In this document: positions 4,064 through 29,355 of the stretch, piece by piece | Position numbering within the stretch: position 1 is the first letter of the stretch | How the letters are laid out: every line of letters begins with the position of its first letter | From: an uncultured Verrucomicrobia subdivision 3 bacterium | GTDB lineage: Bacteria; Verrucomicrobiota; Verrucomicrobiia; Limisphaerales; UBA11358 | Length of the DNA stretch: 64,000 nucleotides | Reading direction: 5' to 3' | NCBI GenBank assembly: GCA_903918885.1 | Contig: CAIXFY010000050.1 | Span: 12,730-76,729 of the forward strand | The notes under the pieces: generated by a model | The model's input: the letters and a program-made list of their open reading frames with translations, nothing else | Database searches by the model: none | What the model was told of the DNA's origin: nothing | Made by a program: the position numbers and the translations under genes

Positions 4064-4168
4064 GATTGTTTTTGCGGAAACATTTGGTGTCTGGAAAATG
4101 TTTCACTCTGCGGCTAACAAATTTGACTCCCCAACTTTCAGGGCTAAACTCACGGAGCATTTTTGAAC

Positions 4169-5500: not shown

Positions 5501-5896
5501 TTATTGATCGCCGGACGGCGGTCCGGGCGGACGGGAATTATCGCCGCCTTCGGAGCTGTTGCCGCCGTGCTGCTGGCCGCCCATTCCTCCGCGCATCGGC
5601 GGACGGAAGTTTTTCAACTGCGTTAGTTGGTCGGCCGTCAGAATTTTTTCCAACTTGGCTTTGGTTTCCGCTTCGAGGGCGGCGATCTGCGTCTTCTGGT
5701 CGTCCGTCAACTTGAGCTGTTGCATCAGCGGCGGCGGCAGGACATGGAATCCGCCGCGCGGTTGGCCGCCTTGATGTTGGCCGGGCGATTGTGCGTCCGG
5801 CGGCCCACCGGCGGGCGGCGTGTTGTCTTGGGCGCTGGCCGTGAGCGCGATGGCTCCGATGGCGGCCAGCAATGCGATGGTCGTTCTAGTTTTCAT
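5501..5896 (-). CDS. Small exported Spy/CpxP-like (LTxxQ) protein with Gly/Pro/Gln-rich tails
   Basis: Signal peptide ending ASA-Q; two LTxxQ motifs (LTDDQ, LTADQ). Confidence 0.65.
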   Translation of the reverse strand: MKTRTTIALLAAIGAIALTASAQDNTPPAGGPPDAQSPGQHQGGQPRGGFHVLPPPLMQQLKLTDDQKTQIAALEAETKAKLEKILTADQLTQLKNFRPPMRGGMGGQQHGGNSSEGGDNSRPPGPPSGDQ

Positions 5897-5941
5897 AGTT
5901 TTGATGTGTGTTGTTTTGTTGTTGGTTTCAGGTGCAAATTT

Positions 5942-6355
5942 TCAGGCGTGCGCCAGCAGTGCATTTTCCAATCCCGCTTCCGCCAGCGTCGCGCGCAAGG
6001 CATCCATTGGAAACGGCTTGTTCAGCAGCCCGCAAAATCCCGCGTGCCGCGCCGCCGCTTCTGTGAAAAATCCGCTGCCCGTCGCCAAAATAATTTTCTG
6101 TGCCGGTGTAATCGCGCGCAACCGGCGGCACAGCTCCACGCCGTCCATGCCCGGCATCTCGAAGTCTGTGATGACCAGCGCGTATTTTTCCGGCGCGTCC
6201 GCGAACGCCGCCAGCGCGGCCTGCGGCGAGTGGAAGCATTCCAGATGCGCGTCCGTCAAACATCCCGCCAACTCGGCGGTCAGCGACAACACATCCGCAT
6301 TGTCATCCACCAGCATCCAGTGCTTGGTCTCGGTTGAATCAAAGAAGTGGTTCAT
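5942..6355 (-). CDS. Single-domain response regulator (receiver)
   Basis: LVDD, ITDFEMPGMDG, ATG, KPF; GGAGG RBS before ATG at 6355. Confidence 0.85.
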   Translation of the reverse strand: MNHFFDSTETKHWMLVDDNADVLSLTAELAGCLTDAHLECFHSPQAALAAFADAPEKYALVITDFEMPGMDGVELCRRLRAITPAQKIILATGSGFFTEAAARHAGFCGLLNKPFPMDALRATLAEAGLENALLAHA

Positions 6356-6365
6356 AGCGCCTCCG

Positions 6366-6458
6366 TTAATTTTTGAAAACCACGCGCACCGCAAACGCCA
6401 CCAGTTCCCCGCTGGTGATGATGATTCGTTGCGCCTTGCGTGTGGTTTTACTTTTCAT
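6366..6458 (-). CDS. Putative 30-aa leaderless small protein MKSKTTRKAQRIIITSGELVAFAVRVVFKN
   Basis: ATG 6 nt after a TAGATT -10-like hexamer; TAA abuts the GGAGG RBS of the receiver gene. Confidence 0.45.
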   Translation of the reverse strand: MKSKTTRKAQRIIITSGELVAFAVRVVFKN

Positions 6459-6464
6459 GAGGCC

Positions 6465-6500
6465 AATCTACCTGAACTAACCTTAAGGAATCGTGAAGCC
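6465..6500 (-). promoter_or_regulatory. Direct-repeat box GGCTTCA-N6-CTTAAGG plus -10 (TAGATT)
   Basis: Same box and 10-nt spacing to TAGAnT at 23830-23865; third copy at 23900-23917. Confidence 0.7.
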
Positions 6501-6553
6501 CGAAAATCTTTTGAAATTATTTTTGCGCGGCAAGCTGCGCATCCATCAAAGAT

Positions 6554-7966
6554 TCATCTGCGCGGCAGCGAACAACTATCGGCCACGGTTCTGTCCGGAG
6601 CGGCTTTGACGTATTCCACCTTGACGATTTCCGGCGACACCGTGACGCGCACGTGGCCGGAGTTGCCGAGGAAAATCCCCTGCTTATAGCCGTAAGTTTG
6701 CAAATCGCGGATACGATCATTGCCCGCAAAGCTCGGCTGCGGAATCATGACGTAGGGCAGACCGTCGAGTTCCTGCCGCGCGTAAAAATTGTCATGCGCG
6801 CGGAAGACGGCGGTAACGCGGTTTTGCAAAAGCATTTTGTGAACCGGCATTGGCCAGCCGGGACGATACGACGCAAAGCCTTCCGTGCCATCCAAATTTT
6901 TTCCACCCCATTCGTTGAACCCGGCGATCTCCACGCCGCCACGCGAGGCTTGATCACCAGCCAGCAGGTTATGGAGAAACACAAATTTATATTTCGCCGA
7001 GCTGCCCGCCAGCGTTTTGGCGAGCCAGTCGTATTGCTCGCGACCGAGTGACCATGACCAGCCGTCGTTGTTGCGTCCGCCGGAACGAAGCGAATAACGA
7101 TACGGATCCAGCACGACAAACAACGCATCGCCCCAAGTCCACGCGTAATAATTTTCCAGCAGACCGGAAACCGCAAGCCGCGTGGCGTCGCCGGAATAAA
7201 ATTCATCCGGTTCGGGATTGGGAAAATATTTTTTGCGCGCGGCATTGGACTGGACGGCGAGGCTGTTCGGCGAGCCGTCGTCGTAACGGCTGGCTTCGCC
7301 GTCGTGAACGCCGAGCGCGAGGAACAACGGACATCCGAGTTGGTTAAGATAATAACGCTGCGCGCGATATTGCTGCCAAGCCTCGTCGCGCGTGGCGTGC
7401 TTGTCGGTCATGAACAGATTGCCGAGATCAATGTGGAAATCCGGCGCATCGGCGCGGATGTTGGCAAGCGACTGTTCATACACCGGCGCGCTGGTGTGTT
7501 CGTCCAGATGCACGTCCGCCGTCATCGTGAAAGTGAAACTGCTGCCCGACGAACGCGCGGTGTGGAAAGAAAATTCCGGGCTGTTCGTAAACGTCTGCGC
7601 GCCGGAAGTTCGGAAACGAAGCTGGTAATAATATTTGGTATCCGCTTTCAGTGGGGAGATTTTAAATTCCGTCGGCGTGCCATTTTTTAACTGTTTCAAC
7701 GGCGTTTGCTCAACGCATTTGCCGGATTGATTGCCATAAACCACGCATGCTTCCATGTCGCGATAAGCCAATACGCTGATGGTGACGGAATGGTTTTCCG
7801 GTCGCGCGAGAATTAAATCGTAATCGCGCTTCGGCACGGTGACATGAAAAACATTTGTGCCCGAAGGCGCGCGATGGCCGTGGTCGCCATCCGGCTTCGA
7901 GCTTTCGGCAAAAACAGAAACGCAGCCAGCAATCACCAAAAAAACAGCCGTCAAAGTTTTACGCAT
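6554..7966 (-). CDS. Exported purple-acid-phosphatase-like metallophosphoesterase with degenerate metal-ligand motifs
   Basis: Signal peptide, FN3-like domain, ADVH / LGNL / GVHD / AHDN, YYAWTWGDALFVVLD shared with paralogues. Confidence 0.75.
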   Translation of the reverse strand: MRKTLTAVFLVIAGCVSVFAESSKPDGDHGHRAPSGTNVFHVTVPKRDYDLILARPENHSVTISVLAYRDMEACVVYGNQSGKCVEQTPLKQLKNGTPTEFKISPLKADTKYYYQLRFRTSGAQTFTNSPEFSFHTARSSGSSFTFTMTADVHLDEHTSAPVYEQSLANIRADAPDFHIDLGNLFMTDKHATRDEAWQQYRAQRYYLNQLGCPLFLALGVHDGEASRYDDGSPNSLAVQSNAARKKYFPNPEPDEFYSGDATRLAVSGLLENYYAWTWGDALFVVLDPYRYSLRSGGRNNDGWSWSLGREQYDWLAKTLAGSSAKYKFVFLHNLLAGDQASRGGVEIAGFNEWGGKNLDGTEGFASYRPGWPMPVHKMLLQNRVTAVFRAHDNFYARQELDGLPYVMIPQPSFAGNDRIRDLQTYGYKQGIFLGNSGHVRVTVSPEIVKVEYVKAAPDRTVADSCSLPRR

Positions 7967-9503
7967 GGTGCTCCTTCGCCTTCACCGTGTAGCTGTGCGC
8001 GATGTCGCCGGTTTTGTTTTGCGCGGTTTCATCCTTCGGCAAAAAGCTGCGGACATATTCCACTTTCACATTTTTCGGCGAAACCGTGACGCGCAAGTGG
8101 CCGGAGTTCGGCAGCTTCACGCCCGATTGATAGCGGTCGGCGTTGTAGGTCTGGTAGCCGTGATCGGCAGGCATCGGCACTTCCTGATAAATAATTCCGT
8201 CGCGCTGTTGTTGGCAATAAAGATGGTCGTGGCCCTGAAAGAAAATCGTCACGCCGTGTTTGGCCATGAGCTGATGCACCGGCAATTCCCAGCCCAGCCG
8301 CCGTTGCGTGAATTCCCAGTCGCCGCGCTTGTTCTTGCCGCCCCATTCATACAAATCACATTCGTCCACGCCGCCGCGACCCGAACCCATGACGTGATGC
8401 GCGAAAACAAATTTATATTTCGCCTTGCTGGCTTCGAGCGTGCGCTTGAACCACTGATACTGCGCGTCGCCGAGCGTGAGCGTCCACCAATCGCGATCAT
8501 GACCCTTGCCGCCCTTGCCGCCGCCCGCGTCTTGCTCGCGAAAACCGCTGTCCACCTGTGCGGACGAATGCCAGTAATTGTCGAGGATTACGAACAGCGC
8601 GTCACCCCAAGTCCATGCACAATAATCTTTCCGCAGGCCGATGGCGGGTAACGGCTCGGCGTCGCCGGAATAAAATTTGTCCGGCGACGGCGTGGGATAA
8701 AATTGATTGCGCGCGTTCTGTGCGTAGACGGCGACCGCGTGGCGCTCGTCGGTCTGGTTAAAATTGAAGAGCGACGCCTGCTCGTGATTTCCATTCACCA
8801 AAAAAACCGGCGCGTTTTGTCCAACGAGACCGAGGAACGGACGTTGCAGCGTGTAGCGCGCGGCGACGGCATCGAAATTCACCTCGCGCACCGGCGCGAC
8901 GCTGAAATCGTCGCCCATGCAGATGTAAAAATCTGGCTGGTCGGCGGCGGCGTTAAGCAGCGTGCGCGCGTAAAGATTCGGCTCGCTCATCTGCGGTCGT
9001 TCCGGGTGAGAATCACCTTGAATCGCAAAAGTGAACGAATTTCCGGCGGCGCGCTGCGTGTGGAATCGGCACTCGGGTCGCGCGGTGAAATTTGTTTCAC
9101 CCGGTTTGCGAAATTGCAGCCGGTAAAAATATTGCATGTCCGATTGCAGCTTGTCGAAAACCATCTCGATGGGTTTATTCGCCGCAAAAGTGAGCAGTCC
9201 GGTTTTGTTGGTGTAATTGCCCGTTGAAGTTCCGTATTCAAAAAAGCCCTCGATGTTTTCCCTGGTCACCGCGCTCACGGTCACGGATTGGTCGGTGACG
9301 CGACCCAGCACGAGCGTCAGCCAGTTGAACGCCGCGAGTTCCGGTGGCAAAACATAATCCGGCGCGTCGCGCCCTCGTCCGCCGCCGCCTTTCTTGCGCT
9401 GGATGTTTCGGGTGTTCGTCTGCCCCAAACCAGAAAGTGAAATCCAGGTGAGCGACCAAGCGAGCAGGCCAAGAAAGTTCCGCCGATGGGTTTTGAAGCT
9501 CAT
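7959..9503 (-). CDS. Exported metallophosphoesterase (calcineurin-like), probable Tat substrate
   Basis: Start re-assigned to MSFKTHRRNFLG; GDSH, MGDD, GNHE, GHDH motifs. Confidence 0.85.
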   Translation of the reverse strand: MSFKTHRRNFLGLLAWSLTWISLSGLGQTNTRNIQRKKGGGGRGRDAPDYVLPPELAAFNWLTLVLGRVTDQSVTVSAVTRENIEGFFEYGTSTGNYTNKTGLLTFAANKPIEMVFDKLQSDMQYFYRLQFRKPGETNFTARPECRFHTQRAAGNSFTFAIQGDSHPERPQMSEPNLYARTLLNAAADQPDFYICMGDDFSVAPVREVNFDAVAARYTLQRPFLGLVGQNAPVFLVNGNHEQASLFNFNQTDERHAVAVYAQNARNQFYPTPSPDKFYSGDAEPLPAIGLRKDYCAWTWGDALFVILDNYWHSSAQVDSGFREQDAGGGKGGKGHDRDWWTLTLGDAQYQWFKRTLEASKAKYKFVFAHHVMGSGRGGVDECDLYEWGGKNKRGDWEFTQRRLGWELPVHQLMAKHGVTIFFQGHDHLYCQQQRDGIIYQEVPMPADHGYQTYNADRYQSGVKLPNSGHLRVTVSPKNVKVEYVRSFLPKDETAQNKTGDIAHSYTVKAKEHHA

Positions 9504-9516
9504 GGGCAAAAGCAAG

Positions 9517-12500
9517 TCACGGGTTGAACAGCGCGCGATAAAAGCGGCGCTGAAAATTGGTTGTCTCGGTGTCAGACCAGAGCAGCGGCGAGACGGAGAG
9601 GTTGGTGGAAAAGACGTTCGTCCAATTGATGAGATTCGTCGAAGCTTGCACAATGTAAGTCTGGCCGGTCGTGCCGACGATGGAAAATTGCACGCAACCG
9701 CCGGTCAGCATCGTGCCCGCCAACACTGGCGGCGGATTGGTCGGTGCGGGAATACTGTAGCTGTAGGCCACCATGCGGTTGGTTTTGCCGACGCCCTCGT
9801 CCGCCGGACGGTAGGAGCGCACATAATCCACAATGGCATTGGTCGGAGAGATGGTGACGCGCAGATGGCCGGAGCTGCCGTAGAGGACGCCGTTGGTGTA
9901 GTTGTAATTTGGGTCGGTCGCGGAATTGACCGAGTTATACGGGTAGTGACTCGGCTGCGGCACTTCCTGATAGATGAAGTCCGGGTTGCCGTTGGTGTTG
10001 CCGCTCGCGAAATAATCCTGCTTCACATACAGGTGGTCGTGGCCGTGGAAAAAGACCTGCGCCCGATTGGTGATAAGCAAATCGCGAATGGGCATGGGCC
10101 AGCCGGGGCGGTGTGCGGCAAAACCCGGCGTGCCGTTGGTGTTCAAACCGCCCCACTCGAAGTAAGGTGAAAATTCCAGTCCGCCGCGTGCGGTCGAGTC
10201 AAAGCTGCCGCCGATGAGGTGGTGGGCGAAGATGAATTTGAATTTTGCGGTGCTGGTTTCGAGCGTGGACTTGAGCCAGAAATATTGATTCGTGCCAAGC
10301 GTCCACGCCCATGGGTCTTTGGATTTGCTGACGCCTTGGTTGCTATACCAGAACGGGTCGAGCACGACGAACAGCGCATCGCCCCACTCGAAGGCGTAGT
10401 AGCCGTCGCGCGGATCTTGCTGGTAGGCATCGGTGTTGGTCGCGCCGGAATAAAATCCGCCAGGAACCGGGCAGGGATAATACAGTTCGCGCGCGCTGGC
10501 GGCCCACACCGGCGGGTTGGTGTGCGGCGAAGTGTTGTCCAGCCACCAGCCCAATTCCGGATCGTGATTGCCGTCCACAAGAAACAGCGGAACGGAGTGT
10601 CCGGAGATGTTGAAGAACTGGTTGCGGACGGCGGCGCACGCGTCGATGATGCCCGGCTGCGTCATCGTGTAAGGATTGGTGGACGCATATTTTTCGCCCA
10701 TGAACGTGTCGCCGAGATCGATTAAAAAATCCGGCTGGTCGGCAAGGACATTGGTGAGCGTTTGTTGCCAGATGGAAGGAACTGTGCCGGGGTTGTCGTT
10801 GTAATGCGGGTCGGCCTCGATGTCGAAAGTGAACGTGCTGCCGCGCGCGCGTTGCGTGGCAAACGTGCGTTCCGCTCCGGCGCTGAAAGGCGCGCTGCCG
10901 TTGGTTGAAAAGCGCAGACGGTAAAAAAATTTCTGGTTGCCCTGAAGCTGGTTGAAGATGAACGCCGTGGGGACGGTGGCCGCGACGAGATTTGTCGTGG
11001 TCTGGTTCGTGTAAATGCCCGATTGCGTGCCGCACTCCAGATAGGCTTGCAGGTCGTTGCTCGCGAGAACGCTCACGGCGATGGAGCTGGCGGTGGGGCG
11101 ACCGAGCAACACGTCATACGCGGTGAAGATGTTTGTGTCAGCAACCCCGCTGGCGTTCGTGACAGTGAGAACGGCGGGCAGGCTGTTCGTGCTCGTGGGC
11201 CAATTGACAGCCTTGTCGGTCACCACCACGTCGTAGGTTGCAGCGTCGGTTGCGGAGATATTGGTCAGGTCGAGCCGGGTAAGATAAACGCTCGTATCCA
11301 CCGTCGTGTAGTTTGTGGCCGTGAGAATGTTCGTTCCGTTTTTCCGCCACTGAACGGAGAACTGCTTGGGATACACCGTGGTCATCGCCCAGAATGTCAC
11401 ATTGCTGCCCGCCGCCACGGTCTGGCTTTGCGGATGCACGCCGATATAGGGCGGATAGGCTTCCGCCGTGATGTTTCCGTAATCCGCCGTCAACGTCGCC
11501 ACGACGTTCGAGTAGGCAGGCACGTTGATCAGGTCCGTCGTCTCGTAAGGATCGGCGATGATGTCGAACAGCAAGTTGGTGAAAGCGTTGGCCGAAATCT
11601 TGTCGCGGATGAGCTTGAACATCGTGAGGCTCGGGCCGTTGCTGAACACGTCGAACACGCCGCTGCCGCCGCTGCTGCCGGAAACGAGCGGCACGCCGCG
11701 ATAGTTCGTGGGATTGAACGCGCCGTTTGTCGCCGTGAGCAGCAACGGCCACATGTTCACGCCGTCGAAGGGCTTCGGGTTCAGCGGCGTCACGCCCACC
11801 GCCGCGCAGATGGTCGGAAACCAGTCGCCCACCCAGACGAATTGCTGGCAGTTCGTCACGCCCGCTGGCAGCACGCCCGGCCAGCGGATCGCCGCCGGGG
11901 TGTGGATGCCGCCGTCATACAAATCGCCCTTCGTGCCACGCAGCGGCGTGTTCAGCGAGCCGACCGCGTTGTCGCCGCCGTTGTCGCCGAAATAAACCAC
12001 CAGCGTGTTCGTCGTAATGCCTTCGCTGTCGAGCGCGGCGAGCACGCGACCGAGCGCGACGTCTTCCTGATCAATTGCCGCGTCAAGCGTGCGCCGCGTC
12101 GTGTCGGCAATGCCCGTGTATTTGCTGATGAAATTGGTCGCCGCGCTCACCGGGCCGTGAACGGCGTTGAACGCGAGATACAGAATCACCGGCTTCGACG
12201 GGTCGCGCTGTTGCAGCAGTTGCACGGCCTTGTCCGCCAGCAAATCGGAAGACCAGCCCGCGTCCAGATTCGTCTGGCCGTTCAGCCACCAATCCAACAG
12301 GCCGTTGTCCTGACTGATGTGCGTGAAATAATTGATCGCGCCGGTGTATTGTCCGTAGTGGATGTCCCAGCCGCGATTCTGCGGCTGGTAATCAGTATTT
12401 TCGCGGATGACCGGGTAGCTAACGCCGTTAATGACGGTGTTGGAAGCGGTGTTGTAAAGCCCGCCGAGATGCCATTTGCCACACATGAACGTCTGATAGC

Positions 12501-13119
12501 CCGCCGCCTTGAACGTGACCGGCATGAGGTGTTCGTGCAAATCAAGCCCGTGGGAATTGTTGACGCCGGTGCGGATGGGGTTGCGCCCGGTCATCAACGT
12601 CGAACGCGTGACGCTGCAAACCGGCGTGGGATAAAATCGTTCCAGCCGGATGCCTTCGCTGCCGATCCGATCCATGTTCGGCGTGGGCATCTCCGCGCCG
12701 TGACAGCTCAAATCGTGATAACCCTGATCGTCGGTGACGATGATGAGGACGTTCGGCTTGAGCGAGCGGACGAATACCGTGAACGACTGCGTCGCGCTCA
12801 AGTTCGGTGAGCCGTTGTCGGTGACGACAACGCTGAAGAAGTTTGACGTGCCGGAATTATTCGTGGTCGTCAGCCACGCGATTACGCCGGTGTTCGTGTT
12901 GATTGTCGCTCCGCCGGGCGCGGTTAGAAGGCTGAAGGTGAGTTGCTGCGCGGGAACGTCCGCGTCGCTCGCGACGTTGGTGACGGAAAGAGTTTCGCCG
13001 CCGTTGAGGACGCGATTGGTCAGCGCCGACAAGGTGGGCGGCGTGTTGGTCGCCTCGGCGCGGAAAATTCCGGCGCAGAGAACGGCCAGCCAAATCCAGT
13101 TGTTAAAAAACTTCGGCAT
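9517..13119 (-). CDS. Multidomain exported protein: cadherin/Ig-like, arylsulfatase, Ig, metallophosphoesterase, C-terminal FYR tail
   Basis: PNVLIIVTDDQG, CSVTRSTLMTGR, GKWHLG, GDNGG; then ADPH, LGDTF, GNHD, GHDH; C-term QASTNLINW...RRFYRA. Confidence 0.88.
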   Translation of the reverse strand: MPKFFNNWIWLAVLCAGIFRAEATNTPPTLSALTNRVLNGGETLSVTNVASDADVPAQQLTFSLLTAPGGATINTNTGVIAWLTTTNNSGTSNFFSVVVTDNGSPNLSATQSFTVFVRSLKPNVLIIVTDDQGYHDLSCHGAEMPTPNMDRIGSEGIRLERFYPTPVCSVTRSTLMTGRNPIRTGVNNSHGLDLHEHLMPVTFKAAGYQTFMCGKWHLGGLYNTASNTVINGVSYPVIRENTDYQPQNRGWDIHYGQYTGAINYFTHISQDNGLLDWWLNGQTNLDAGWSSDLLADKAVQLLQQRDPSKPVILYLAFNAVHGPVSAATNFISKYTGIADTTRRTLDAAIDQEDVALGRVLAALDSEGITTNTLVVYFGDNGGDNAVGSLNTPLRGTKGDLYDGGIHTPAAIRWPGVLPAGVTNCQQFVWVGDWFPTICAAVGVTPLNPKPFDGVNMWPLLLTATNGAFNPTNYRGVPLVSGSSGGSGVFDVFSNGPSLTMFKLIRDKISANAFTNLLFDIIADPYETTDLINVPAYSNVVATLTADYGNITAEAYPPYIGVHPQSQTVAAGSNVTFWAMTTVYPKQFSVQWRKNGTNILTATNYTTVDTSVYLTRLDLTNISATDAATYDVVVTDKAVNWPTSTNSLPAVLTVTNASGVADTNIFTAYDVLLGRPTASSIAVSVLASNDLQAYLECGTQSGIYTNQTTTNLVAATVPTAFIFNQLQGNQKFFYRLRFSTNGSAPFSAGAERTFATQRARGSTFTFDIEADPHYNDNPGTVPSIWQQTLTNVLADQPDFLIDLGDTFMGEKYASTNPYTMTQPGIIDACAAVRNQFFNISGHSVPLFLVDGNHDPELGWWLDNTSPHTNPPVWAASARELYYPCPVPGGFYSGATNTDAYQQDPRDGYYAFEWGDALFVVLDPFWYSNQGVSKSKDPWAWTLGTNQYFWLKSTLETSTAKFKFIFAHHLIGGSFDSTARGGLEFSPYFEWGGLNTNGTPGFAAHRPGWPMPIRDLLITNRAQVFFHGHDHLYVKQDYFASGNTNGNPDFIYQEVPQPSHYPYNSVNSATDPNYNYTNGVLYGSSGHLRVTISPTNAIVDYVRSYRPADEGVGKTNRMVAYSYSIPAPTNPPPVLAGTMLTGGCVQFSIVGTTGQTYIVQASTNLINWTNVFSTNLSVSPLLWSDTETTNFQRRFYRALFNP

Positions 13120-13122
13120 AAA

Positions 13123-18344: not shown

Positions 18345-18387
18345 AAAAAAAGCATGGTAACTTTGAACATTCCAATGGATAAAAAAT

Positions 18388-20190
18388 CTACGGCGCATTA
18401 TTTTTAAACTGCGCATCGGTCAAAGTATTCAAGAACGCCACCAGCGCCCGCTTGTCCGCCGCGCTCAACGGCACGCCGCCGTCGGGATGCTTGGCGAGAT
18501 TCGGGTCGAGCGTCGCACTGCGTTTCAAACCAGTTGCGTAATGTTCAACGACTGCTTCCAGCGTTTGGAAACGGCCGTCGTGCATATATGGAGCGGTCAG
18601 CGCCACATTGCGTAGCGACGGCGTGGCGAATTTTCCATCATCTGATTTCTTGCCGGTAATTTTGCCGCGACCCAAATCGGCGAAAGTATCATCCAGTCCG
18701 TTGTTGGCGAAACTCTGGCTTTGGAACAATGGGCCGCCGTGGCAATGAAAACAGTCCGCGCCGAATTGTCCGCGACGCGGATCGTATTCGGTGGAGAACA
18801 GTTCAAACCCGCGCTGTTCCTCCGGCGTGAATTTCCCCTCGCCGCGCAGCACGCGGTCGAACTTGGCGTCGAAAGAGGTGAGCGTGAGTAGATAATTTTC
18901 CAGTGCGAGTGAAATCTTTTCCGCCGTGATCTCCGGCGAGCCGAAGGCAGTTGTGAAGAGTGCGGGGTAATCATTGGTGGGGCGCGTCACTCCGTGCGCG
19001 CCGTCGGCGGGCAGGGGACTGCCCGCCCTACCTGTTGTCAGTTTCACAACCAAATTCGTCAGCGCCTCGTGCATCTCAATCGGATTTTGAATCGGCTGCA
19101 ATACCTGTTCGCGCAGACTTTTCGCGCGGCCATCCCAGAAAAATTCCTTCTTCCACGCGAGATTGAATAGCGGCATGGAATTGCGTTCGCCGAATTTTCC
19201 CTCCGCGCCGCGCGCCGTTTTGCGTCCGTCGGTAAAGGCTTTGGCCGGCGCGTGACAGTCGGCGCAGGATTGCTGGTCGTTGATGGACAGGCGTGGGTCG
19301 AGGAATAGTTTTTTGCCCAGCTCCACGCGTTCGACGAGCAGCGGGTTGTCGCGCGGCAAGTCGGGAATCGGAAAGGTCGCGCTCATCTGAAATTCATACG
19401 GTGTAAATTTCGTTGGCAAGAAAAGTGGTTTTGGATGGGCAACAGCGATTTCCGTTTCGCTTAACTGTGTGATGCGGTGAACGCGGAACGCGCCCGCCAG
19501 ATTTCTCACCAACGCGGCGGAAATCGGGTCGCCGTCGCGCGAGTGTGTGGACGAACCGTCCTTGCCAAACGACAGCGGACGCGGCGCGTTCAGCAAGGTT
19601 GCCAAATCAAAATCCAGTTCCAGCTTGGTTTCATTTGTGATTTGTAGCGATGCGGCCAGCGTGACGCAAACGGCGTTGGTATCGCGCGCCAGATGATACG
19701 CCCAGCCGTCGAGTTCGCCGGTGGCGTTGCGCCACAAACCTTCGAGCGCGAGAAAAATAAATCCGCCCTGCCAGCTCCAATGCAATCCGTTCAGATTCGG
19801 GTTCAGTGGATGCGCGGCGGGAAACTTGGCTACATCCGCGTGGTTCAAATTGGTGTTCAGGCCGACGAGAAAACGGAGCGAGCGATATTCGCCGGCCGGA
19901 ATTTCCAGCCGCTTGGAGTCGCGATTCTGCTCGTAATCAAACCACGCGACGGAATTGGAAAGTTCCAGCCACGAACCGTCGTTGCGTTGCAAAGCGAAAT
20001 CGCTGGCAAGCCAGCTCACGCGCGTCACGGAAAAGGTTTCGCCCGCCGAAGTCTGATAGCGCAGCGACGCGGGCTGAAGATTTTCGCCGGAAACTTTCGG
20101 CGTGATTTGAAGTTGCAGCGTGGCGGCGGAAGCCGGATTGACCGCGCACAAGCCGGTGAGCCATAAAATAATTTTCCGCGCCAGCTTCAT
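18388..20190 (-). CDS. MbnP-like domain fused to MbnH/MauG-type diheme cytochrome c peroxidase
   Basis: N-half GLNTNLNHAD...LHWSWQGGFIF...YHL; C-half LGKKLFLDPRLS, CADCH, FWDGRA, CFHCH, TPSLRNVALTAPYMHDG. Confidence 0.85.
   Translation of the reverse strand: MKLARKIILWLTGLCAVNPASAATLQLQITPKVSGENLQPASLRYQTSAGETFSVTRVSWLASDFALQRNDGSWLELSNSVAWFDYEQNRDSKRLEIPAGEYRSLRFLVGLNTNLNHADVAKFPAAHPLNPNLNGLHWSWQGGFIFLALEGLWRNATGELDGWAYHLARDTNAVCVTLAASLQITNETKLELDFDLATLLNAPRPLSFGKDGSSTHSRDGDPISAALVRNLAGAFRVHRITQLSETEIAVAHPKPLFLPTKFTPYEFQMSATFPIPDLPRDNPLLVERVELGKKLFLDPRLSINDQQSCADCHAPAKAFTDGRKTARGAEGKFGERNSMPLFNLAWKKEFFWDGRAKSLREQVLQPIQNPIEMHEALTNLVVKLTTGRAGSPLPADGAHGVTRPTNDYPALFTTAFGSPEITAEKISLALENYLLTLTSFDAKFDRVLRGEGKFTPEEQRGFELFSTEYDPRRGQFGADCFHCHGGPLFQSQSFANNGLDDTFADLGRGKITGKKSDDGKFATPSLRNVALTAPYMHDGRFQTLEAVVEHYATGLKRSATLDPNLAKHPDGGVPLSAADKRALVAFLNTLTDAQFKNNAP
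18976..19032. repeat. GTAG-type REP doublet inserted in frame (57 bp)
   Basis: GGTGGGGCGCGTCACTCCGTGCGCGCCG and CGGCGGGCAGGGGACTGCCCGCCCTACC, two inverted hairpins with GTAG/GTGG ends. Confidence 0.7.
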
Positions 20191-21470
20191 CTGGAATCGT
20201 AGCCGCCATTGCCGGCATTCCAAGAGATTGTCGTTGTTTTGGCGGTGGCGGTTTTGAGGTTGGTAACGGGATGCGCCAGAAAATTGGTCGTCACCGGTTC
20301 GTGAACGCCAGTGACGAGACAGCCAATCGGATAGCCATGAAAGCGCCGGCCCATGTTGTAAGGATAAACGGGTTGGCCGTTGACATCAATCGTGGTGAAG
20401 TAAGCATAAGTTCCCTGCGGAAATTCCGGCGTGACGCACCAGCGGCCGTTGAGCTCATCGAGGTCGAAATCTTTGCCCAAAGTTTTCCCGCAGTCGCCGA
20501 CATACGCGTAGTCCTCGATGTAATGACCGAGCGGATATTTTTCGCTGACATTTGGCCCGGTTTGAAAATCTGGCAGCACGGCGGAACGATTTTGTTCGCG
20601 CGCTTCCCAAGTGGGTAAAGTGCGGCGACCGGTTTGTGCGAGATTGTCGGTGCCGTTCTCGCCGTTGCGCAAAGCGAAACCAGAAATCATTCGGCGCACG
20701 CCGCTGGCAGGATTGGTGGGGTTGGAAAAACCATAAGGCCCGTAAACCGGATAGCCGTCCTGCATCCAGCCGAGAATCGGCGAATGCTTGGTCGGCGCGC
20801 TGGAACTTTCGCGGTAAGTTTTTGTCGCGGAATCAAAATCCACATGGTCGCCGAGTTCGTAGCGCAGCGCGATAGGTTCGACATGATAGTGATAAGTGCC
20901 GCGATTTTGCTGGTGCGCGAGCGCGGCGTCGAAAGTCCGACCCTCGTTCACCAGCGCGTCGCGGTTCCAAACGCGGTCACCTTGGCCGATGCCGGCGCGC
21001 GGGCTGGCGTCCTGATGCTTTTGGTGCGAGTAGGAAAACGCATCACCAGCGTCGAACATCCGCACGCCATCCACGAACATTCCAATTTCGCCAAGGCGGT
21101 TGAAATTTTGCGTCGGCTGAACTTTCGGATGGCGCGGCAGCGCAAAAATAAAATGCTGATCCGTCGGCAGGTTAGGAAAAAATCCGTTCTGCCACGGCCC
21201 CATGATTTGGCTGCCGAGGCCGGTGCTGAAAACATAAATCCAGTTGGACGACGACATGATTTTTTGCACGCCGCAATACGCTGGCTGCGATTGCGTGTTG
21301 CGGCCGTTGCTCCAAGTCGTTTCGGTCTGGCCGGAATTTTTCTCCGCGACGGTGCGGTAGATTTGCGCGAACCTGCCGGAGTCGAGCGTGAACCACGAAG
21401 TGATTTGCGGGTCAGCAAAAGCTTTTGTGCTCAGCACACAGAAAATTGCGGCGGAAAAAATAAATTTCAT
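20187..21470 (-). CDS. Exported YHYH-domain protein
   Basis: Start MKFIFSAAIFC; TYHYH, HSPILGWMQDGYPVYGPYG, DLDELNGRWCVTPEFPQGTYAYF. Confidence 0.85.
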   Translation of the reverse strand: MKFIFSAAIFCVLSTKAFADPQITSWFTLDSGRFAQIYRTVAEKNSGQTETTWSNGRNTQSQPAYCGVQKIMSSSNWIYVFSTGLGSQIMGPWQNGFFPNLPTDQHFIFALPRHPKVQPTQNFNRLGEIGMFVDGVRMFDAGDAFSYSHQKHQDASPRAGIGQGDRVWNRDALVNEGRTFDAALAHQQNRGTYHYHVEPIALRYELGDHVDFDSATKTYRESSSAPTKHSPILGWMQDGYPVYGPYGFSNPTNPASGVRRMISGFALRNGENGTDNLAQTGRRTLPTWEAREQNRSAVLPDFQTGPNVSEKYPLGHYIEDYAYVGDCGKTLGKDFDLDELNGRWCVTPEFPQGTYAYFTTIDVNGQPVYPYNMGRRFHGYPIGCLVTGVHEPVTTNFLAHPVTNLKTATAKTTTISWNAGNGGYDSR

Positions 21471-21483
21471 GCAGTTGGCAAAG

Positions 21484-23817
21484 TTAATTGATGGTGAAAT
21501 AACTCGTGAGCGTGTAAGGCGGTGGGCCGGAGTTGAAAGTGACGACAATCGTTTGTGCGCCGGTGGGCGTGTAGCCGGACGGAATCGTGAACAGCGCCAC
21601 CACCGAGCCTTGCACCGTGTAGCTCGTGCTGATGGCGGTAATGCTGCCCACGGTGACGCTCGTGATGGGCGCACCGGCAGGCGGGGCGTTGGGCGGATAA
21701 CTGCCGCCGGTTGGCAGCGTGATGGTGAGCAGCACGGATTGACCGCGATAGGCTGCGCCGCCGGGAGCGACGGCGTTGGTGGCAAACAGCGTGGTGCCCG
21801 CGCTGTCGTAACTCGCCACGGATGTGCGTCCGGCGCGGTAAAATCGTTTGTCGAGCGCGCTGACATCGTCGAGATAAGTGCTGCCGGGGCCGTTCGTGGC
21901 GTAGGTGTTGATGGTGAGACCGCCGGCCAAAGAAGTCCACGAGGTCAAGTTCGTAGAGCCTTCGATTTGATAACTGCCGCCGTCCACGCCCGTCCATTTG
22001 AGCGAGACAAGGCCACCGTTGATGTAAGTAGGCGTGTTCATCTTGCTTACGAGATTTGTGCCGCCAAGAAAATTGGTGATCGCGTTTTCGGTGACGGAAA
22101 TGGCGCTCACTGTGCCGCCGCTCGGCGTGCCGTAGTAGCCACGTCCGATGTTGTAGGGAAATGTCGGCGTGCCGTTGCTGCTGATGCTGACAAAGTAGGC
22201 GTAAGTGCCGTTGGGAAATTCCGGCGTGACGCAGTAGCGCCCGTTGTATTCGTCGAGGTCGTAGGTGTTCGTGCCGGGCGCGATGCCATGATCACCGAGA
22301 TAATCGTTATCCTCCATGTAGCGGCCGAGAACATAAATGCCAGCGACATTCGGGCCGACTTGATTGGAGACGACATTGAACAAGCGCGCCGACCACGCGG
22401 GAATGGTTTTGCGTCCGTTCGCCGTGAGATTGCTCGTGCCGAAAGTTCCGTTCCGCAAAATGTAGCCGGAAATCATCCGTCGGATGCCGCTGCTGGCGTT
22501 GTTGGAAACGCCGTAACCGTAAGGTCCGTAAACCGGATAGCCGTCCGCCGTCCACGCGAGAATCGGCGAGTGCTTGGTCGGCGTGTTGGTGGACTCGGTA
22601 TAAATTTTTGTCACGGAATTAAAATCCACATGGTCGCCGAGCTGGTAGCGCAGCGCGGGCGGATTAGCGTGATAATGATATTGTCCGCCCGCCTGATGCG
22701 CGTTGTTCGGGTCGAAGCTCGCGCCTTCGTTCACATACGCGTCGCGGTTCCAATAGCCGGTGATGTTCTGCGCGTCCACATTGGAAACCGTGCTGTAAGA
22801 ATACGCGTCCCAACTGTTGAACATCGCCGCGCCGTCCACGAAATATCCAATTGGCCCACCGCCGCTCGCGGTTTTTGTCGTCGGCACGGACGGGCTGCGC
22901 GGAATGCGATACATAGTTTTCTGGTTCACCGGCCAGTTCGGAAACGGCTGCGTGTGCTGCGCATTTAGATACCACGGCCCCATCACAAAACTGCCCAGCC
23001 CCGTGCTGCGGATGTAAACCCAGTTGCTGGAGGAATATATTTCCTGCACGCCGCAATATGCGGGCAGCGACTGGATGGTCGTCCCGTTCGTCCACGCTGT
23101 CATGGAAACTCCGTTTGTGCGCGACAAATCATTGGTGTAGATGCGCGCGTATTGGCCGGCGTAGGTGGTGAACCACGAGTTTGTGCGCGGGTCGGCGGGT
23201 AAATTGGTCGCCGTGGTCGTGAACGATGCGTTCAGCACGATGTTCTGGCTGGGCGCGGGCACATCGGTCAATTGGAAACTGGAAGTGCTCGTGTTCGTCA
23301 ATTGCGCGGAATAATTCGCGCCGTTCAGCGAAGCGGTGGTCGCGTCCAGCGCCTGAATTATTTCCGTGCTCGTTGAATACGGAATGTTTTTCGAGGCGGT
23401 CGCGGACGAATTCCAGTTCAAGTTGCCGCCGCCATCCACCGGCCGCACGCCCAATCCGGCGATGCCAAACCGGACCGAACTCGTCGTCACGCCGCTGGAC
23501 ACGGACACCAACGATGCGGTCAAAGTCACGCCGTATCCATAAACAATCAGATTGCCATTCACGCTGACGCGCGTGTCGCCATCAAGGATGGAAAATGTCG
23601 CCGCCGCGCCGCCGGCATACGGCGACATCGTGACCGCGATGACGACATTCTGGCCGGACGCCGAATCGGTGAAGGTGTAGTTCTTCGTGAGATTCGTCGC
23701 GAGCGAGACGATGGAATCGTAATTGGTGACGCTCGCGGCCTTGGTGTTTTGCGCCAGCGCGGAAAATGCCAGCACGGTCAGGATCAGAATTTTTTTGAAT
23801 CGGGTGTTGGTTTTCAT
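21484..23817 (-). CDS. Large exported YHYH-domain protein with extra beta-rich domains
   Basis: Signal peptide; QYHYH, HSPILAWTADGYPVYGPYG, DLDEYNGRYCVTPEFPNGTYAYF; close paralogue of 20187-21470. Confidence 0.85.
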   Translation of the reverse strand: MKTNTRFKKILILTVLAFSALAQNTKAASVTNYDSIVSLATNLTKNYTFTDSASGQNVVIAVTMSPYAGGAAATFSILDGDTRVSVNGNLIVYGYGVTLTASLVSVSSGVTTSSVRFGIAGLGVRPVDGGGNLNWNSSATASKNIPYSTSTEIIQALDATTASLNGANYSAQLTNTSTSSFQLTDVPAPSQNIVLNASFTTTATNLPADPRTNSWFTTYAGQYARIYTNDLSRTNGVSMTAWTNGTTIQSLPAYCGVQEIYSSSNWVYIRSTGLGSFVMGPWYLNAQHTQPFPNWPVNQKTMYRIPRSPSVPTTKTASGGGPIGYFVDGAAMFNSWDAYSYSTVSNVDAQNITGYWNRDAYVNEGASFDPNNAHQAGGQYHYHANPPALRYQLGDHVDFNSVTKIYTESTNTPTKHSPILAWTADGYPVYGPYGYGVSNNASSGIRRMISGYILRNGTFGTSNLTANGRKTIPAWSARLFNVVSNQVGPNVAGIYVLGRYMEDNDYLGDHGIAPGTNTYDLDEYNGRYCVTPEFPNGTYAYFVSISSNGTPTFPYNIGRGYYGTPSGGTVSAISVTENAITNFLGGTNLVSKMNTPTYINGGLVSLKWTGVDGGSYQIEGSTNLTSWTSLAGGLTINTYATNGPGSTYLDDVSALDKRFYRAGRTSVASYDSAGTTLFATNAVAPGGAAYRGQSVLLTITLPTGGSYPPNAPPAGAPITSVTVGSITAISTSYTVQGSVVALFTIPSGYTPTGAQTIVVTFNSGPPPYTLTSYFTIN

Positions 23818-23829
23818 AATCGTGCCGTG

Positions 23830-23865
23830 ACTCTAAACAAAGTCACCTTAAGCGAACATGAAGCC
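23830..23865 (-). promoter_or_regulatory. Direct-repeat box GGCTTCA-N6-CTTAAGG plus -10 (TAGAGT) heading the YHYH operon
   Basis: Matches the 6465-6500 site in sequence and spacing. Confidence 0.7.
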
Positions 23866-23899
23866 AGCCAAAAATTGCACACCGGTGGGCAATTTTTAT

Positions 23900-23934
23900 C
23901 TTCATCTCCCCTTAAGGTCAACATTGCGAAGATT
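23900..23934 (+). promoter_or_regulatory. Third box CTTCA-N6-CTTAAGG upstream of the response regulator (possible autoregulation)
   Basis: CTTCATCTCCCCTTAAGG followed 11 nt later by AAGATT. Confidence 0.6.
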
Positions 23935-23985
23935 CCGATGCTGGCGGATTCAGATAGTCCATGCTAAAACTTCGCCAGCCCGAAC

Positions 23986-24636
23986 ATGAGAATTCTCATC
24001 GTCGAAGACGAACCCGATTTGCTCGCGAGCCTCGCGCAGGCGTTGCGCGAGGAAGGCTACGCCGTGGACACCGCCGACAACGGCGACGACGGCCTCTTCA
24101 ACGCCGAAGGCACGGACTACGACGCGATTGTTTTGGATGTCATGTTGCCCGGCATGGATGGCTGGGAGGTTTTGAAGCGCCTTCGCAAAACCAAAAAAAC
24201 TCCAGTCCTCATGCTCACCGCGCGCGATCAGACGCGCGACCGCGTGAAAGGCCTCGACACCGGCGCGGATGATTACGTCGTCAAGCCGTTTGACCTCGAT
24301 GAAGTGTTCGCCCGCCTCCGCGCCATCATCCGCCGCAGCGCGAACAAGACCACCAACATAATTGAAATCGGCGATGTCAAAGTTGATGCCGCCGCGCGCA
24401 TCGTTTCGCTCAAGAACAAACCGGTCGAACTCACGGCGCGCGAGTATTCGCTGGTGGAATTCATGGCGCTGCATCGCGGCGAAGTGGTTACACGCACGCA
24501 GCTTTACGAGCATCTGTTCGACGAGAACGAAGATTCGTTTTCCAACCTGCTCGATGTGCATGTTTCCAACGTCCGCAAAAAACTCGGCGCGGAATTCATT
24601 GCCACCCGGCGCGGCCATGGCTATTGCATCGAATGA
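23986..24636 (+). CDS. OmpR/PhoB-family response regulator
   Basis: IVEDE, LDVMLPGMDG, GADDYVVKPF, LTAREY, TRRGHGY. Confidence 0.95.
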   Translation: MRILIVEDEPDLLASLAQALREEGYAVDTADNGDDGLFNAEGTDYDAIVLDVMLPGMDGWEVLKRLRKTKKTPVLMLTARDQTRDRVKGLDTGADDYVVKPFDLDEVFARLRAIIRRSANKTTNIIEIGDVKVDAAARIVSLKNKPVELTAREYSLVEFMALHRGEVVTRTQLYEHLFDENEDSFSNLLDVHVSNVRKKLGAEFIATRRGHGYCIE

Positions 24637-26159
24637 AGATTTTCAAATCCATCAAGTGGCGTTTGCAACTCTGGTATGGCCTGATTCTTGTCGTTGTGCT
24701 GGCGGGGTTTGGTTTCACGGCCTATCAACTTCAGCGCAACCGGCAGTTTCGCCAGGTTGACGACGGGATTCACCAGCGCATCGGCATTCTCGCGAACAAT
24801 CTGCACCGCCCGCCGCTGCGTCCGGGCAATGGCGACGGCAGCGGTGTTAATCAGTTTGGTAACCGCCAACCGCCGGAAGACCAGTTTCCGCAGGATCAGT
24901 TTTCCAATGACCGTCCGCCGCAATTCCAGCGTCGTTCGCAGGTGTTCCATCTCGCGCCAGAGAACGCCCGGCTGTTTGACACAAATGACATCAATGGTTT
25001 CTTTTTCCGCATCAGTCGGCTTGTGGAAAACGACCGCACCATCATCGCGCAATCGGAAAACTATCGGCAACCGCAGCCGGTTTTGGAATACGACCATTAC
25101 TTTGATCAATTGAACCACTTCGATTTTCCGGACAGAAAAAAACTGGTTTCGCCGAAAACCATTGCTGCGGGTGATGACCAGATTGTCATTGAAACATTGC
25201 CATCGGGCGAAGCGATTGAAGTCGGCTGCTCACTCAAGCCCATGCGCGCGGAACTCCGCAACGCCGCGTTGCACCTCGCGGGCGTGGGCGGACTAATTTT
25301 ACTTGTGGGCTTGTTCGGCGGCTGGTGGTTTGTCGGTCGCGCGCTCCGGCCGATTTCGGAAATCAGCGCTACGGCGGTGAAAATTTCCGCCGGCGATTTG
25401 TCGCAACGGATTTCCGCCGCCGAAACTGAAAGCGAACTCGGCCAGCTTGCGGCGGTTTTGAATTCCACCTTCGCGCGCTTGGAAACCGCATTCGCCCAGC
25501 AGAAACAATTCGCGTCCGATGCGGCGCACGAACTCCGCACGCCAGTCACGGTGATTCTCACGCAGACGCAGACCGCGTTGAACCGCGAGCGCGACGCCGC
25601 CAGCTACAAGCAGACCGTTGAAGCTTGTCAGCGCGCGGCGCAGCGGATGCGTAAACTCATCGAATCGCTGCTTGCGCTGGCCCGGTTTGACGCTGGGCAG
25701 GAAGTCTTGCGCCGGACAGATTTTGATTTTTCTGAAACCATTGCCGACTGCGCGGAGCTGGTGCAACCGCTCGCGGACGAGCGCGCGGTGAAAATTTCCG
25801 TTGCTGTCGAACCCGTTAAAATCACGGGCGATGCCGAACGCCTTGCCCAAGTCGTCACCAATTTGCTCACCAACGCGATTCAATACAACCAGCCCGCCGG
25901 CGAAGTGCGCGTGCAACTGGCATCGCAAAATGGTCTGGCCGTGCTGACCGTGACGGATACGGGGCAGGGGATTGCCCCCGCCGATTTGCCGTTGGTGTTC
26001 GGCAGATTTTATCGCGCCGACCAGTCGCGCACGGGTGCCAGCAATGCCGGTCTTGGCCTTGCCATTACCAAAGCCATCGTCGAGGCGCACGGCGGGACGA
26101 TTGAAGTGGCGAGCGAAGAAAATGCCGGGACAACTTTTACCGTGCGGCTGCCCATTTGA
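24633..26159 (+). CDS. Membrane sensor histidine kinase (HAMP-HisKA-HATPase, CusS/QseC-like)
   Basis: Two TM segments, FASDAAHELRTP, NLLTNAIQY, DTGQGI, GLGLAI; ATGA overlap with the regulator. Confidence 0.95.
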   Translation: MKIFKSIKWRLQLWYGLILVVVLAGFGFTAYQLQRNRQFRQVDDGIHQRIGILANNLHRPPLRPGNGDGSGVNQFGNRQPPEDQFPQDQFSNDRPPQFQRRSQVFHLAPENARLFDTNDINGFFFRISRLVENDRTIIAQSENYRQPQPVLEYDHYFDQLNHFDFPDRKKLVSPKTIAAGDDQIVIETLPSGEAIEVGCSLKPMRAELRNAALHLAGVGGLILLVGLFGGWWFVGRALRPISEISATAVKISAGDLSQRISAAETESELGQLAAVLNSTFARLETAFAQQKQFASDAAHELRTPVTVILTQTQTALNRERDAASYKQTVEACQRAAQRMRKLIESLLALARFDAGQEVLRRTDFDFSETIADCAELVQPLADERAVKISVAVEPVKITGDAERLAQVVTNLLTNAIQYNQPAGEVRVQLASQNGLAVLTVTDTGQGIAPADLPLVFGRFYRADQSRTGASNAGLGLAITKAIVEAHGGTIEVASEENAGTTFTVRLPI

Positions 26160-29316: not shown

Positions 29317-29317
29317 C

Positions 29318-29355
29318 TCACCCATTAAACGGACGCCGGAACGAAATTCCGACAA
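29318..29355 (-). promoter_or_regulatory. Putative ECF autoregulatory promoter
   Basis: TTGTCGGAATTTCGTTCCGGCGTCCGTTTAATGGGTGA immediately before the ATG. Confidence 0.7.

Follow-up and report, generated by a model that had tools for sequence, protein, structure and literature searches.

A predicted two-module regulon of exported proteins, with YHYH, MbnP-MbnH, and ester-enzyme genes, in a Verrucomicrobiota genome from lake water

Genes for the protein pair MbnP and MbnH often adjoin a gene for a TonB-dependent transporter. According to sections of one published account (PMC11951088), the WxW motif of MbnP holds a tryptophan that is turned into kynurenine. The YHYH domain defines a large family found across bacteria, phages, and diatoms; its function is uncharacterized, no fold has been solved for the subfamily considered here, and portions of two sources call the domain enigmatic and predict a zinc site formed by three histidines (PMC7824862; preprint 10.64898/2026.10.18.759936). 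The PmrA box of Salmonella and Klebsiella, as described in part of PMC3973317, consists of two CTTAAG-type hexamers arranged as a direct repeat, 5 bp apart. Here, we analyze a locus that invites comparison with each of these systems. It occupies positions 5501–26159 of a 64,000-nucleotide stretch of contig CAIXFY010000050.1 (hereafter, the window) from an uncultured Verrucomicrobiota bacterium. The window lies on contig C50 of a 2.46-Mb, 85-contig genome, which is 91% complete, and the stretch occurs in lake-water metagenomes. Sequence comparison indicates that the locus unites two modules, which are conserved separately in other genomes: module A, comprising a regulator-kinase pair, YHYH proteins, and an MbnP-MbnH fusion (MbnPH), and module B, comprising five genes for putative ester enzymes and binding domains. 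We hold with considerable confidence that this architecture, a single regulon built of two modules, is correct.

Eight genes, designated g1 to g8, run on the minus strand from 23817 to 6554, with successive gaps of 13, −4, 43, −4, 3, 13, and −8 nt. Divergently from them, on the plus strand, lie the genes of an OmpR-family response regulator of 216 aa (23986–24636; Pfam Response_reg and Trans_reg_C) and of a sensor histidine kinase (24624–26159; HAMP, HisKA, and HATPase_c), about 175 aa of which form a periplasmic domain. The kinase gene probably begins with the ATG at 24633; this codon and the stop codon of the regulator gene overlap. A second minus-strand unit follows g8 and comprises a putative small open reading frame (ORF) of 30 codons (6366–6458), a gene for a single-domain receiver protein of 137 aa (5942–6355; Response_reg, 57.3 bits), and a gene for an exported LTXXQ (Spy/CpxP/ZraP-like) protein of 131 aa (5501–5896). 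A first-pass annotation of the window had described the same eight tightly spaced, co-oriented genes and the same second unit, and both were confirmed, with a weak match for the LTXXQ protein (17.2 bits; Pfam cut-off, 24.3). Pfam recovered all the families that the annotation had named, LTXXQ below its cut-off: YHYH in three genes, MbnP with CCP_MauG in a protein of 600 aa, PEBP, FGE-sulfatase with Arylsulfotrans, Sulfatase with Ig and Metallophos, two more Metallophos proteins, and the domains of the regulator, kinase, and receiver. The N-termini of all eight proteins and of the LTXXQ protein carried K/R residues followed by a hydrophobic stretch, in agreement with the export signals that had been claimed for the eight; these were called with a crude script, with no trained predictor. 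Gene starts were moved to the signal-peptide methionines, and the GTG start of g5 was our choice. A scan with a terminator consensus gave 18 sites against 29.4 expected, none of them in any intergenic gap of the operon, which is weak support at best for operon continuity.

The three units share a promoter box. Its consensus, CTTCAY-N5-CTTAAG, is a direct repeat and precedes the regulator operon, g1–g8, and the second unit. A search with CTTCAYNNNNNCTTAAG at no more than one mismatch returned 3 matches in the window, each of them exact, where 0.11 were expected; none of 100 shuffles gave 3, and the whole genome (2.46 Mb) contained no further exact copy. The shared box that the first-pass annotation had placed ahead of all three units is confirmed. 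The intergenic region between the regulator gene and g1 contains two inverted copies, one aimed at each divergent unit: CTTCATCTCCCCTTAAG (23900–23916, plus strand) faces the regulator gene, suggesting autoregulation, with its position and orientation kept in sister loci, and CTTCATGTTCGCTTAAG (23847–23863, minus strand) faces g1 and is likewise kept. The third copy, CTTCACGATTCCTTAAG, lies at 6482–6498 on the minus strand. About 11 nt after CTTAAG, a −10-like hexamer was found at every window copy, namely, TAGAGT 11 nt beyond the g1-facing box and TAGATT beyond the third, and sister boxes were always followed by a TA(A/G)A(T/C)T-like sequence. The box therefore occupies the position of a −35 element. 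Since the start codon of the small ORF lies only 6 nt after the hexamer, the transcript of this unit may be leaderless. In other loci, the equivalent ATG begins the receiver gene itself, and a peptide similar to the small ORF was found at the equivalent place only in loci L059 and L106.

The placement of the box was followed in a survey of 80 YHYH loci from public genomes (1.18 Mb in total), 61 of which had at least 2.5 kb of downstream sequence and 49 of which had both flanks. A slightly relaxed form of the box occurred 58 times in the 80 loci. It lay within 400 nt of the regulator start in 18 of 19 loci with a regulator at least 70% identical to that of the window, compared with 0 of 20 loci with a more distant regulator. 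In those sister loci that were inspected, receiver or LTXXQ genes were preceded by the same arrangement as at the third box. In sister genomes, the box also preceded orthologues of g5 and g4 (G008), EF-hand genes (G023 and G015), an unlinked MbnPH gene (G015), and an unlinked Spy-like gene (G008). One further box, on contig C4 of G011, had no −10-like hexamer and was discarded as a chance match. At locus L157 (G008:C74:28600-32438), a full box, a −10-like hexamer, and the usual CATGAAAAG start are followed by two transposase genes with an integrase core (rve); this may be a promoter of the regulon severed by a mobile element.

The survey also showed how the two modules are distributed. By sequence comparison, module A recurs across Verrucomicrobiota: the fusion gene lay on the same strand within 8 kb of YHYH in 35 of the 61 loci, with both halves in 33 and directly adjacent in 23. 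Among the 49 loci with both flanks, 24 had the regulator and the fusion, 5 the regulator only, and 7 the fusion only. Among 401 genomes from the phylum, 15 had the g7 family; in 15 loci from 12 of these genomes, its neighbors included a sulfatase (10 loci), a PEBP or g4-type gene (8), an arylsulfotransferase-like gene (5), an FGE-like gene (5), and a two-component system (5). Therefore, the grouping of sulfatase, sulfotransferase, and phosphoesterase genes is not due to chance, in line with the earlier proposal, because the set recurs together in other genomes. In those 15 loci, the counterparts of g4, g5, and g6 are separate genes, which the window has in fused form. The broader proposal that all components are conserved as one system failed: neither MbnPH nor a g1/g2-type YHYH gene occurred in any of the 15 loci around g7/g8-type genes, and of the 80 YHYH loci one had a g7/g8-type phosphoesterase and none had g4. 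Of the expected co-occurrence, the part concerning YHYH-MbnPH and the regulator stood, and the part concerning g7/g8-type phosphoesterase and g4 genes did not.

The closest relative, L059, in which g2 is 81% identical, has the kinase, regulator, g1, g2, g3, receiver, Spy-like, and MFS genes and lacks g4–g8. Compared with it, the window has 11.8 kb of inserted DNA, g4–g8, which separates g3 from the third box, and each junction was spanned by contigs of identical sequence that came from two further samples in the same study. A different study yielded a strain of about 93% identity in which approximately 1.9 kb of other sequence replaces g5 and g6. Module B genes also adjoin a regulator 85–90% identical to that of the window in G008 and G011. 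In same-genus genomes, a regulator of this identity on one side and the MFS flank on the other bracket differing cargo. In G023 and G014, it consists of YHYH and MbnPH, in some cases accompanied by an EF-hand gene or a receiver; G011 has genes for an Lcl_C protein, an LTXXQ protein, g7, g8, and a receiver; and G008 has FGE-like, PEBP, arylsulfotransferase, sulfatase, and phosphoesterase genes together with g5 and g4 orthologues.

Within module A, g1 (21484–23817, minus) encodes an exported protein of 777 aa that has a YHYH domain (Pfam PF14240, 123.7 bits; gathering cut-off, 25) and additional domains at both termini, and its orthologues lie directly upstream of MbnPH in many genomes. The second gene, g2 (20187–21470, minus), encodes an exported YHYH protein of 427 aa (146.9 bits). 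An AlphaFold2 model of g2 had a pLDDT of 90.7 and a pTM of 0.88; Foldseek comparison of this model with the PDB gave 0 matches at E ≤ 0.001, phmmer against PDB sequences returned a single chance-level match (E 0.83), and a feature search of the ESM Atlas with PF14240 excluded yielded no usable match for YHYH. Across 43 YHYH sequences, D181, H196, and H229 were invariant and H186, H194, and D238 were conserved in at least 90%, and these residues form a predicted metal site.

The third gene, g3 (18388–20190, minus), encodes the MbnP-MbnH fusion of 600 aa (MbnP, 104.5 bits, cut-off 27; CCP_MauG, 174.7 bits). W138 and W140 of its WxW motif were invariant in 35 of 35 sequences, as were the haem motifs CxxCH (C309, C312, and H313; C480, C483, and H484). 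A model of the MbnP half (pLDDT 93.2) matched only six chains in the PDB at E ≤ 0.001, all of 7L6G, the best of them with an E-value of 7.7e-10 and TM scores of 0.61/0.51. The C-terminal half gave its best PDB match with 6e1c (E 1.2e-40), which we take to be MbnH, and scored 216.5 bits with the NCBIfam model TIGR04039, below the cut-off of 362.85. Both domains were present in all g3 homologues among the matches listed (at least 120), and a near-full-length fusion was found in 11 of 40 relatives. Among 98 extra same-strand ORFs in 44 YHYH-MbnPH loci, EF-hand genes were the commonest (10), and the remainder looked like flank genes. Co-folding of g3 (residues 23–600) with g2 (residues 20–404), run with separate alignments and without folded controls, gave a score of 0.00 against a mark of 0.32, which weighs neither for nor against a complex of the two.

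Several observations concern these genes. Of the same 98 neighboring ORFs, 4 encoded PQQ-dependent dehydrogenases (best E 8.5e-192), besides MFS and DnaB flank genes; together with the EF-hand genes, they hinted at a calcium or lanthanide link, and the PQQ genes look like flank synteny. The genome has a fourth YHYH gene (L139, G000:C73:20000-39999; ORF 10190–11854, minus; 102.6 bits), which adjoins alpha/beta hydrolase and PPK2 polyphosphate kinase genes and lies away from MbnPH or the box. Set among esterase, PPK2, and unrelated genes, it offered no lead. In four lake metagenomes, contig depth peaked within g3 at 18551–19181, reaching up to 560 compared with about 20 alongside, and many contigs broke at 18976–19032, just past the first haem motif, with differing inserted letters. 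This part of the MbnH half seems to be common to many organisms or variants.

Module B begins with g4 (16677–18344, minus), which encodes a short YHYH domain joined to PEBP/YbhB (555 aa; YHYH, 55.1 bits; PBP, 76.2 bits). The YHYH match covers profile positions 2–109 of 193, and full-length orthologues with 53–55% identity were found in G304 and G008. The product of g5 (13123–16680, minus; 1185 aa) combines an N-terminal beta-rich domain, an FGE-fold domain (FGE-sulfatase, 136.5 bits), and an arylsulfotransferase-like propeller (Arylsulfotrans PF05935, 60 bits, above the cut-off of 24.2), the activity of which is predicted from the domain. In human FGE, the positions of the catalytic cysteines follow an RGGS motif. 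The g5 protein has no cysteine after RGGTWW and reads RGGTWWNGNSASDYDYGH, and four module B homologues of its FGE domain read RGGNW(Y/F)NGENGH, also with no catalytic cysteine pair; identity as a true FGE was rejected for g5 on these grounds. Its closest matches were Treponema denticola TvpA, FGE, and PorK in the PDB and GldK in NCBIfam, and as judged by sequence the FGE-fold domain is closest to non-catalytic FGE-fold proteins.

The next gene, g6 (9517–13119, minus), encodes a protein of 1200 aa with sulfatase (173.6 bits), Ig_3 (34.1 bits), and metallophosphoesterase (Metallophos, 22.7 bits; cut-off, 21.5) domains, and a full-length orthologue in G038 is 62% identical. The sulfatase that the first-pass annotation had named is therefore present as a domain, but the canonical CxPxR motif is not: despite the score, the protein reads CSVTR rather than C/S-x-P-x-R, whereas sulfatase-like genes in the YHYH loci of other genomes had CSPxR in 18 of 20 cases among the matches listed. 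The module ends with two metallophosphoesterase genes whose products are 42% identical paralogues. One is g7 (7959–9503, minus; 514 aa; Metallophos, 37.9 bits), with a Tat-like RRNFL sequence. In G011 and G024, its orthologues, 70–71% identical by local tblastn and 72–73% in another comparison, are paired in tandem with g8. The other is g8 (6554–7966, minus; 470 aa), a possible lipoprotein with a lipobox-like IAGC (Metallophos, 20.5 bits, just below the cut-off). The tyrosine ligand of purple acid phosphatases sits in a GDxxY motif, which the phosphoesterases lack; in g7, the sequence reads GDDFS. At their C-termini, g5 and g6 (13123–13300 and 9517–9700) each have a beta-rich domain, about 75 residues long, with FYR(V/A) at its end, and g1 has an internal RFYR.

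The content of module B makes nutrient scavenging the first alternative to a metal-centered reading of the locus. Under this explanation, a shortage of phosphorus or sulfur, or the presence of organic esters such as the phenolic esters of humic matter, would be sensed, the cargo would free phosphorus and sulfur, and the metal-binding proteins would merely load the hydrolases with cofactors. Three phosphoesterase domains in g6, g7, and g8, with weak matches to PhoD and to the purple-acid-phosphatase N-domain (the latter below its cut-off), the sulfatase and arylsulfotransferase, the resemblance of the box layout to a Pho box, the conservation of module B on its own with canonical CSPxR sulfatases, and the origin of the stretch in lake-water metagenomes all speak for it. 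However, the regulon core in most relatives consists of YHYH, MbnPH, EF-hand, and LTXXQ genes and is free of esterases. PhoR is not known to have a large periplasmic domain, unlike the kinase of this locus. In addition, identity of the pair with PhoBR was rejected, and is unlikely, because a better PhoR candidate exists elsewhere in the genome: a kinase at C85:8543-9526 scored 307.3 bits over the whole model (positions 12–332), compared with 185.4 bits (positions 112–333) here. We consider nutrient scavenging an unlikely explanation, though one that should be kept in view.

A second alternative follows from the unit that contains the LTXXQ gene. The protein scored 26.2 bits with the NCBIfam model Spy, whose cut-off is 174, and contains the motifs LTDDQ and LTADQ; its boxed orthologue in G008 is the unlinked gene mentioned above, and a neighboring gene in G011 reaches 33.3 bits with LTXXQ. 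A receiver gene after MbnPH recurs in L059, L060, L064, L070, L100, and L106. The LTXXQ gene would fit an envelope-stress regulon of the Cpx/Bae type, in which the kinase would sense misfolded or damaged envelope proteins, the LTXXQ protein would be a titratable inhibitor and chaperone, and the cargo would be strain-variable secreted proteins without a common chemistry. The presence of an LTXXQ gene and a two-component system under the same box is consistent with it, as are the different cargo of close strains and the poorly conserved sensor domain. The cargo is not arbitrary, however, since both the YHYH-MbnPH pair and the module B set are found repeatedly in different families of the phylum, and the LTXXQ protein of the window scores under the cut-off. 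Thus, an envelope-stress regulon appears rather improbable.

The family relations of the regulator and kinase bear on a third alternative. The best NCBIfam model for the regulator was the heavy-metal response regulator TIGR01387 (229.2 bits; cut-off, 279.2), followed here for comparison by PmrA NF007928 (214.5 bits; equivalog cut-off, 330), and the regulator could be aligned end to end with PmrA/BasR of K. pneumoniae (4s04; E 2.9e-49). The best model for the kinase was the heavy-metal sensor kinase TIGR01386 (283.5 bits; cut-off, 292.55), with the match limited to residues 221–510. Since the box and the regulator resemble those of PmrA, the locus could serve a PmrAB-like surface remodeling, in which a cation of the Fe(III)/Al(III) type would be sensed and anionic phosphate and sulfate groups would then be stripped from surface polymers, reducing metal binding. 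Among the members of the PmrA regulon in enterobacteria are sulfatase-fold transferases and a phosphatase acting on lipopolysaccharide, and the FYR-type C-terminal domains of g5 and g6 may also be counted in favor of this explanation. Nevertheless, the regulator falls short of the PmrA equivalog cut-off, the kinase is unlike PmrB, and the sulfatases are soluble Cys-type hydrolases rather than membrane transferases, so surface remodeling of this kind seems quite improbable to us.

It is very improbable that there is no functional unit at all and that module B was inserted at random into a site that tolerated it, where it would be read through or silent: the absence of g4–g8 from the closest relative, the absence of g5 and g6 from the 93%-identical strain, and the boxed G008 promoter before transposase genes would be in keeping with this, but the gaps of −8 to 43 nt, the lack of terminator-like sites between the genes, and the fact that in G008 and G011, both without MbnPH, module B genes are again found with this box and regulator argue otherwise.

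Further genes flank the locus. An MFS transporter gene of the Tet(A)-like efflux class (4163–5428, plus; 179 bits, cut-off 475) has no box and is a constant flank in many relatives, irrespective of cargo. The kinase gene is flanked by genes for a 162-aa protein without a family match (26473–26961, minus) and for an ECF-type sigma factor that is greatly extended at its C-terminus (27922–29355, minus); both also precede the kinase in L063, with 91% and 87% identity, respectively.

The best overall explanation, in our view, is a local regulon of exported proteins, governed by one two-component system and composed of two modules, with the chemistry and signal proposed below; we put this reading as a whole forward tentatively, at somewhat less than an even chance. 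The earlier idea that the exported proteins form one regulated unit, with a dedicated two-component system and a common box, is supported. In the proposed mechanism, the regulator would most likely bind the direct repeat CTTCAY-N5-CTTAAG, as sequence comparison suggests, with the box substituting for the −35 element in the fashion of a Pho box, and would activate three units: its own operon, g1–g8, and the small-ORF/receiver/LTXXQ unit. The di-haem MbnH half would oxidize one of the WxW tryptophans of the MbnP half to which it is fused, producing a kynurenine-type copper site as in Methylosinus. YHYH would be a secreted metalloprotein with a His/Asp site and the partner of the MbnP-MbnH fusion. 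Module B would act on sulfate and phosphate esters beyond the cytoplasm, by cleavage or by transfer, with the FGE-fold domain of g5 and the PEBP domain of g4 acting as binding parts that make no formylglycine, and the LTXXQ protein and the receiver could provide feedback, like CpxP and ZraP. The signal is possibly a metal condition of the periplasm, with copper as the first candidate, a suggestion that we make with still more reserve. It is drawn from the likeness of both regulatory proteins to heavy-metal families, just under the cut-offs, from the MbnP fold, and from the EF-hand and LTXXQ genes as co-members; the prediction of a three-histidine zinc site, in the portions of the sources named above, is a further hint.

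A number of results weigh against the metal-centered reading. The family scores of the regulator and the kinase are all below curated cut-offs, the periplasmic domain of the kinase matches no metal-sensor family, and in 18 orthologues this part was poorly conserved, with no conserved cluster of His, Cys, or Met residues. Neither a copper pump, a multicopper oxidase, nor a TonB receptor was detected by Pfam among the ORFs in 2660–29355. The first-pass annotation had likewise seen no match to cus/czc or mbn operons, and this stands; its statement that there is no efflux pump had to be corrected, as the Tet(A)-like MFS gene flanks the locus. The MbnP half scored 39.4 bits against an equivalog cut-off of 140 for TIGR04052, and a sequence profile of the fusion missed 7L6G in the PDB at E ≤ 1; thus, the case for copper binding is carried by the fold and the motif. 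In 13 of the 49 YHYH loci with both flanks, neither the regulator nor the fusion was present. Genome-wide, the box occurred 5, 2, 3, 6, and 4 times in five sister genomes compared with 2, 4, 7, 5, and 4 times for a reversed-pattern control, which means that the weight of the box lies in its placement and clustering at these loci. Finally, the compared loci are relatives and not independent samples.

Our literature search found no paper that links YHYH/PF14240 to MbnP/MbnH and none that describes module B, although a mention in earlier analyses of MbnPH neighborhoods or in supplements is possible. What is new in this window is that a single operon unites the two modules, that the box can be read as PmrA-type, and that cargo is exchanged at the strain level. 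For YHYH, the locus supplies a context consisting of an MbnP-MbnH partner, a regulator with a readable box, and putatively co-regulated EF-hand, LTXXQ, and ester hydrolase genes; as a result, the roles of YHYH and of orphan MbnPH pairs become testable questions. The swapping of cargo between strains while the promoter box stays fixed neatly illustrates how a secreted-protein regulon evolves. A bolder and rather doubtful extension is that YHYH proteins are a new class of secreted metalloenzymes, whose fold has no solved relative, for which the single-chain MbnP-MbnH would supply or build the metal site or a tryptophan-derived cofactor, and which in Verrucomicrobiota a cation-sensing two-component system would couple to enzymes that strip or transfer ester groups on extracellular or surface polymers. 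If true, this would be a metal-triggered remodeling or mineral-control system with no described counterpart. If the signal is instead an ordinary nutrient stress, the locus would be a lineage-specific Pho-like regulon and of less interest.

The locus can be compared with several described systems. With PmrA/BasR-PmrB, it shares the half-sites and the 5-bp spacing of the box, which agree with the published PmrA box and from which binding is predicted, and a full-length regulator alignment that includes the histidine of the recognition helix. However, a serine replaces the second base-contacting histidine, the regulator falls under the equivalog cut-off, the kinase has a large periplasmic domain unrelated to that of PmrB, and the regulon contains no lipopolysaccharide-modification genes. 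CusRS, CopRS, and CzcRS (TIGR01386 and TIGR01387) are the top NCBIfam families for both proteins and resemble the locus in standing divergently from an operon of periplasmic cargo. Here, the scores are just below the cut-offs, the kinase likeness is confined to the cytoplasmic part, and no efflux pump or multicopper oxidase accompanies the pair; moreover, the box of CusR and CopR is palindromic, unlike the box described here. As in CpxAR-CpxP and ZraSR-ZraP, an LTXXQ-type periplasmic protein adjoins the two-component system, with a box of its own, whereas the LTXXQ match is weak and an extra single-domain receiver is present; any contact between the LTXXQ protein and the kinase is hypothetical.

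In module B, Sulfatase and FGE-sulfatase Pfam domains are encoded side by side, which recalls formylglycine sulfatases and their FGE, but the catalytic cysteine pair is absent and the sulfatase reads CSVTR. The MbnP/MbnH pair of Methylosinus trichosporium OB3b (7L6G and 6e1c) is matched in the MbnP Pfam domain, the MbnP fold, the WxW motif, the di-haem MauG-like partner with two CxxCH motifs, and a predicted export signal. In contrast to OB3b, neither a methanobactin gene nor a TonB-dependent transporter lies nearby, and both halves of g3 fall under the NCBIfam cut-offs; kynurenine formation and copper binding are putative here. The two proteins are encoded by separate adjacent genes in OB3b, whereas in the locus described here they form one fused polypeptide, with YHYH as the partner gene and control by a two-component system.

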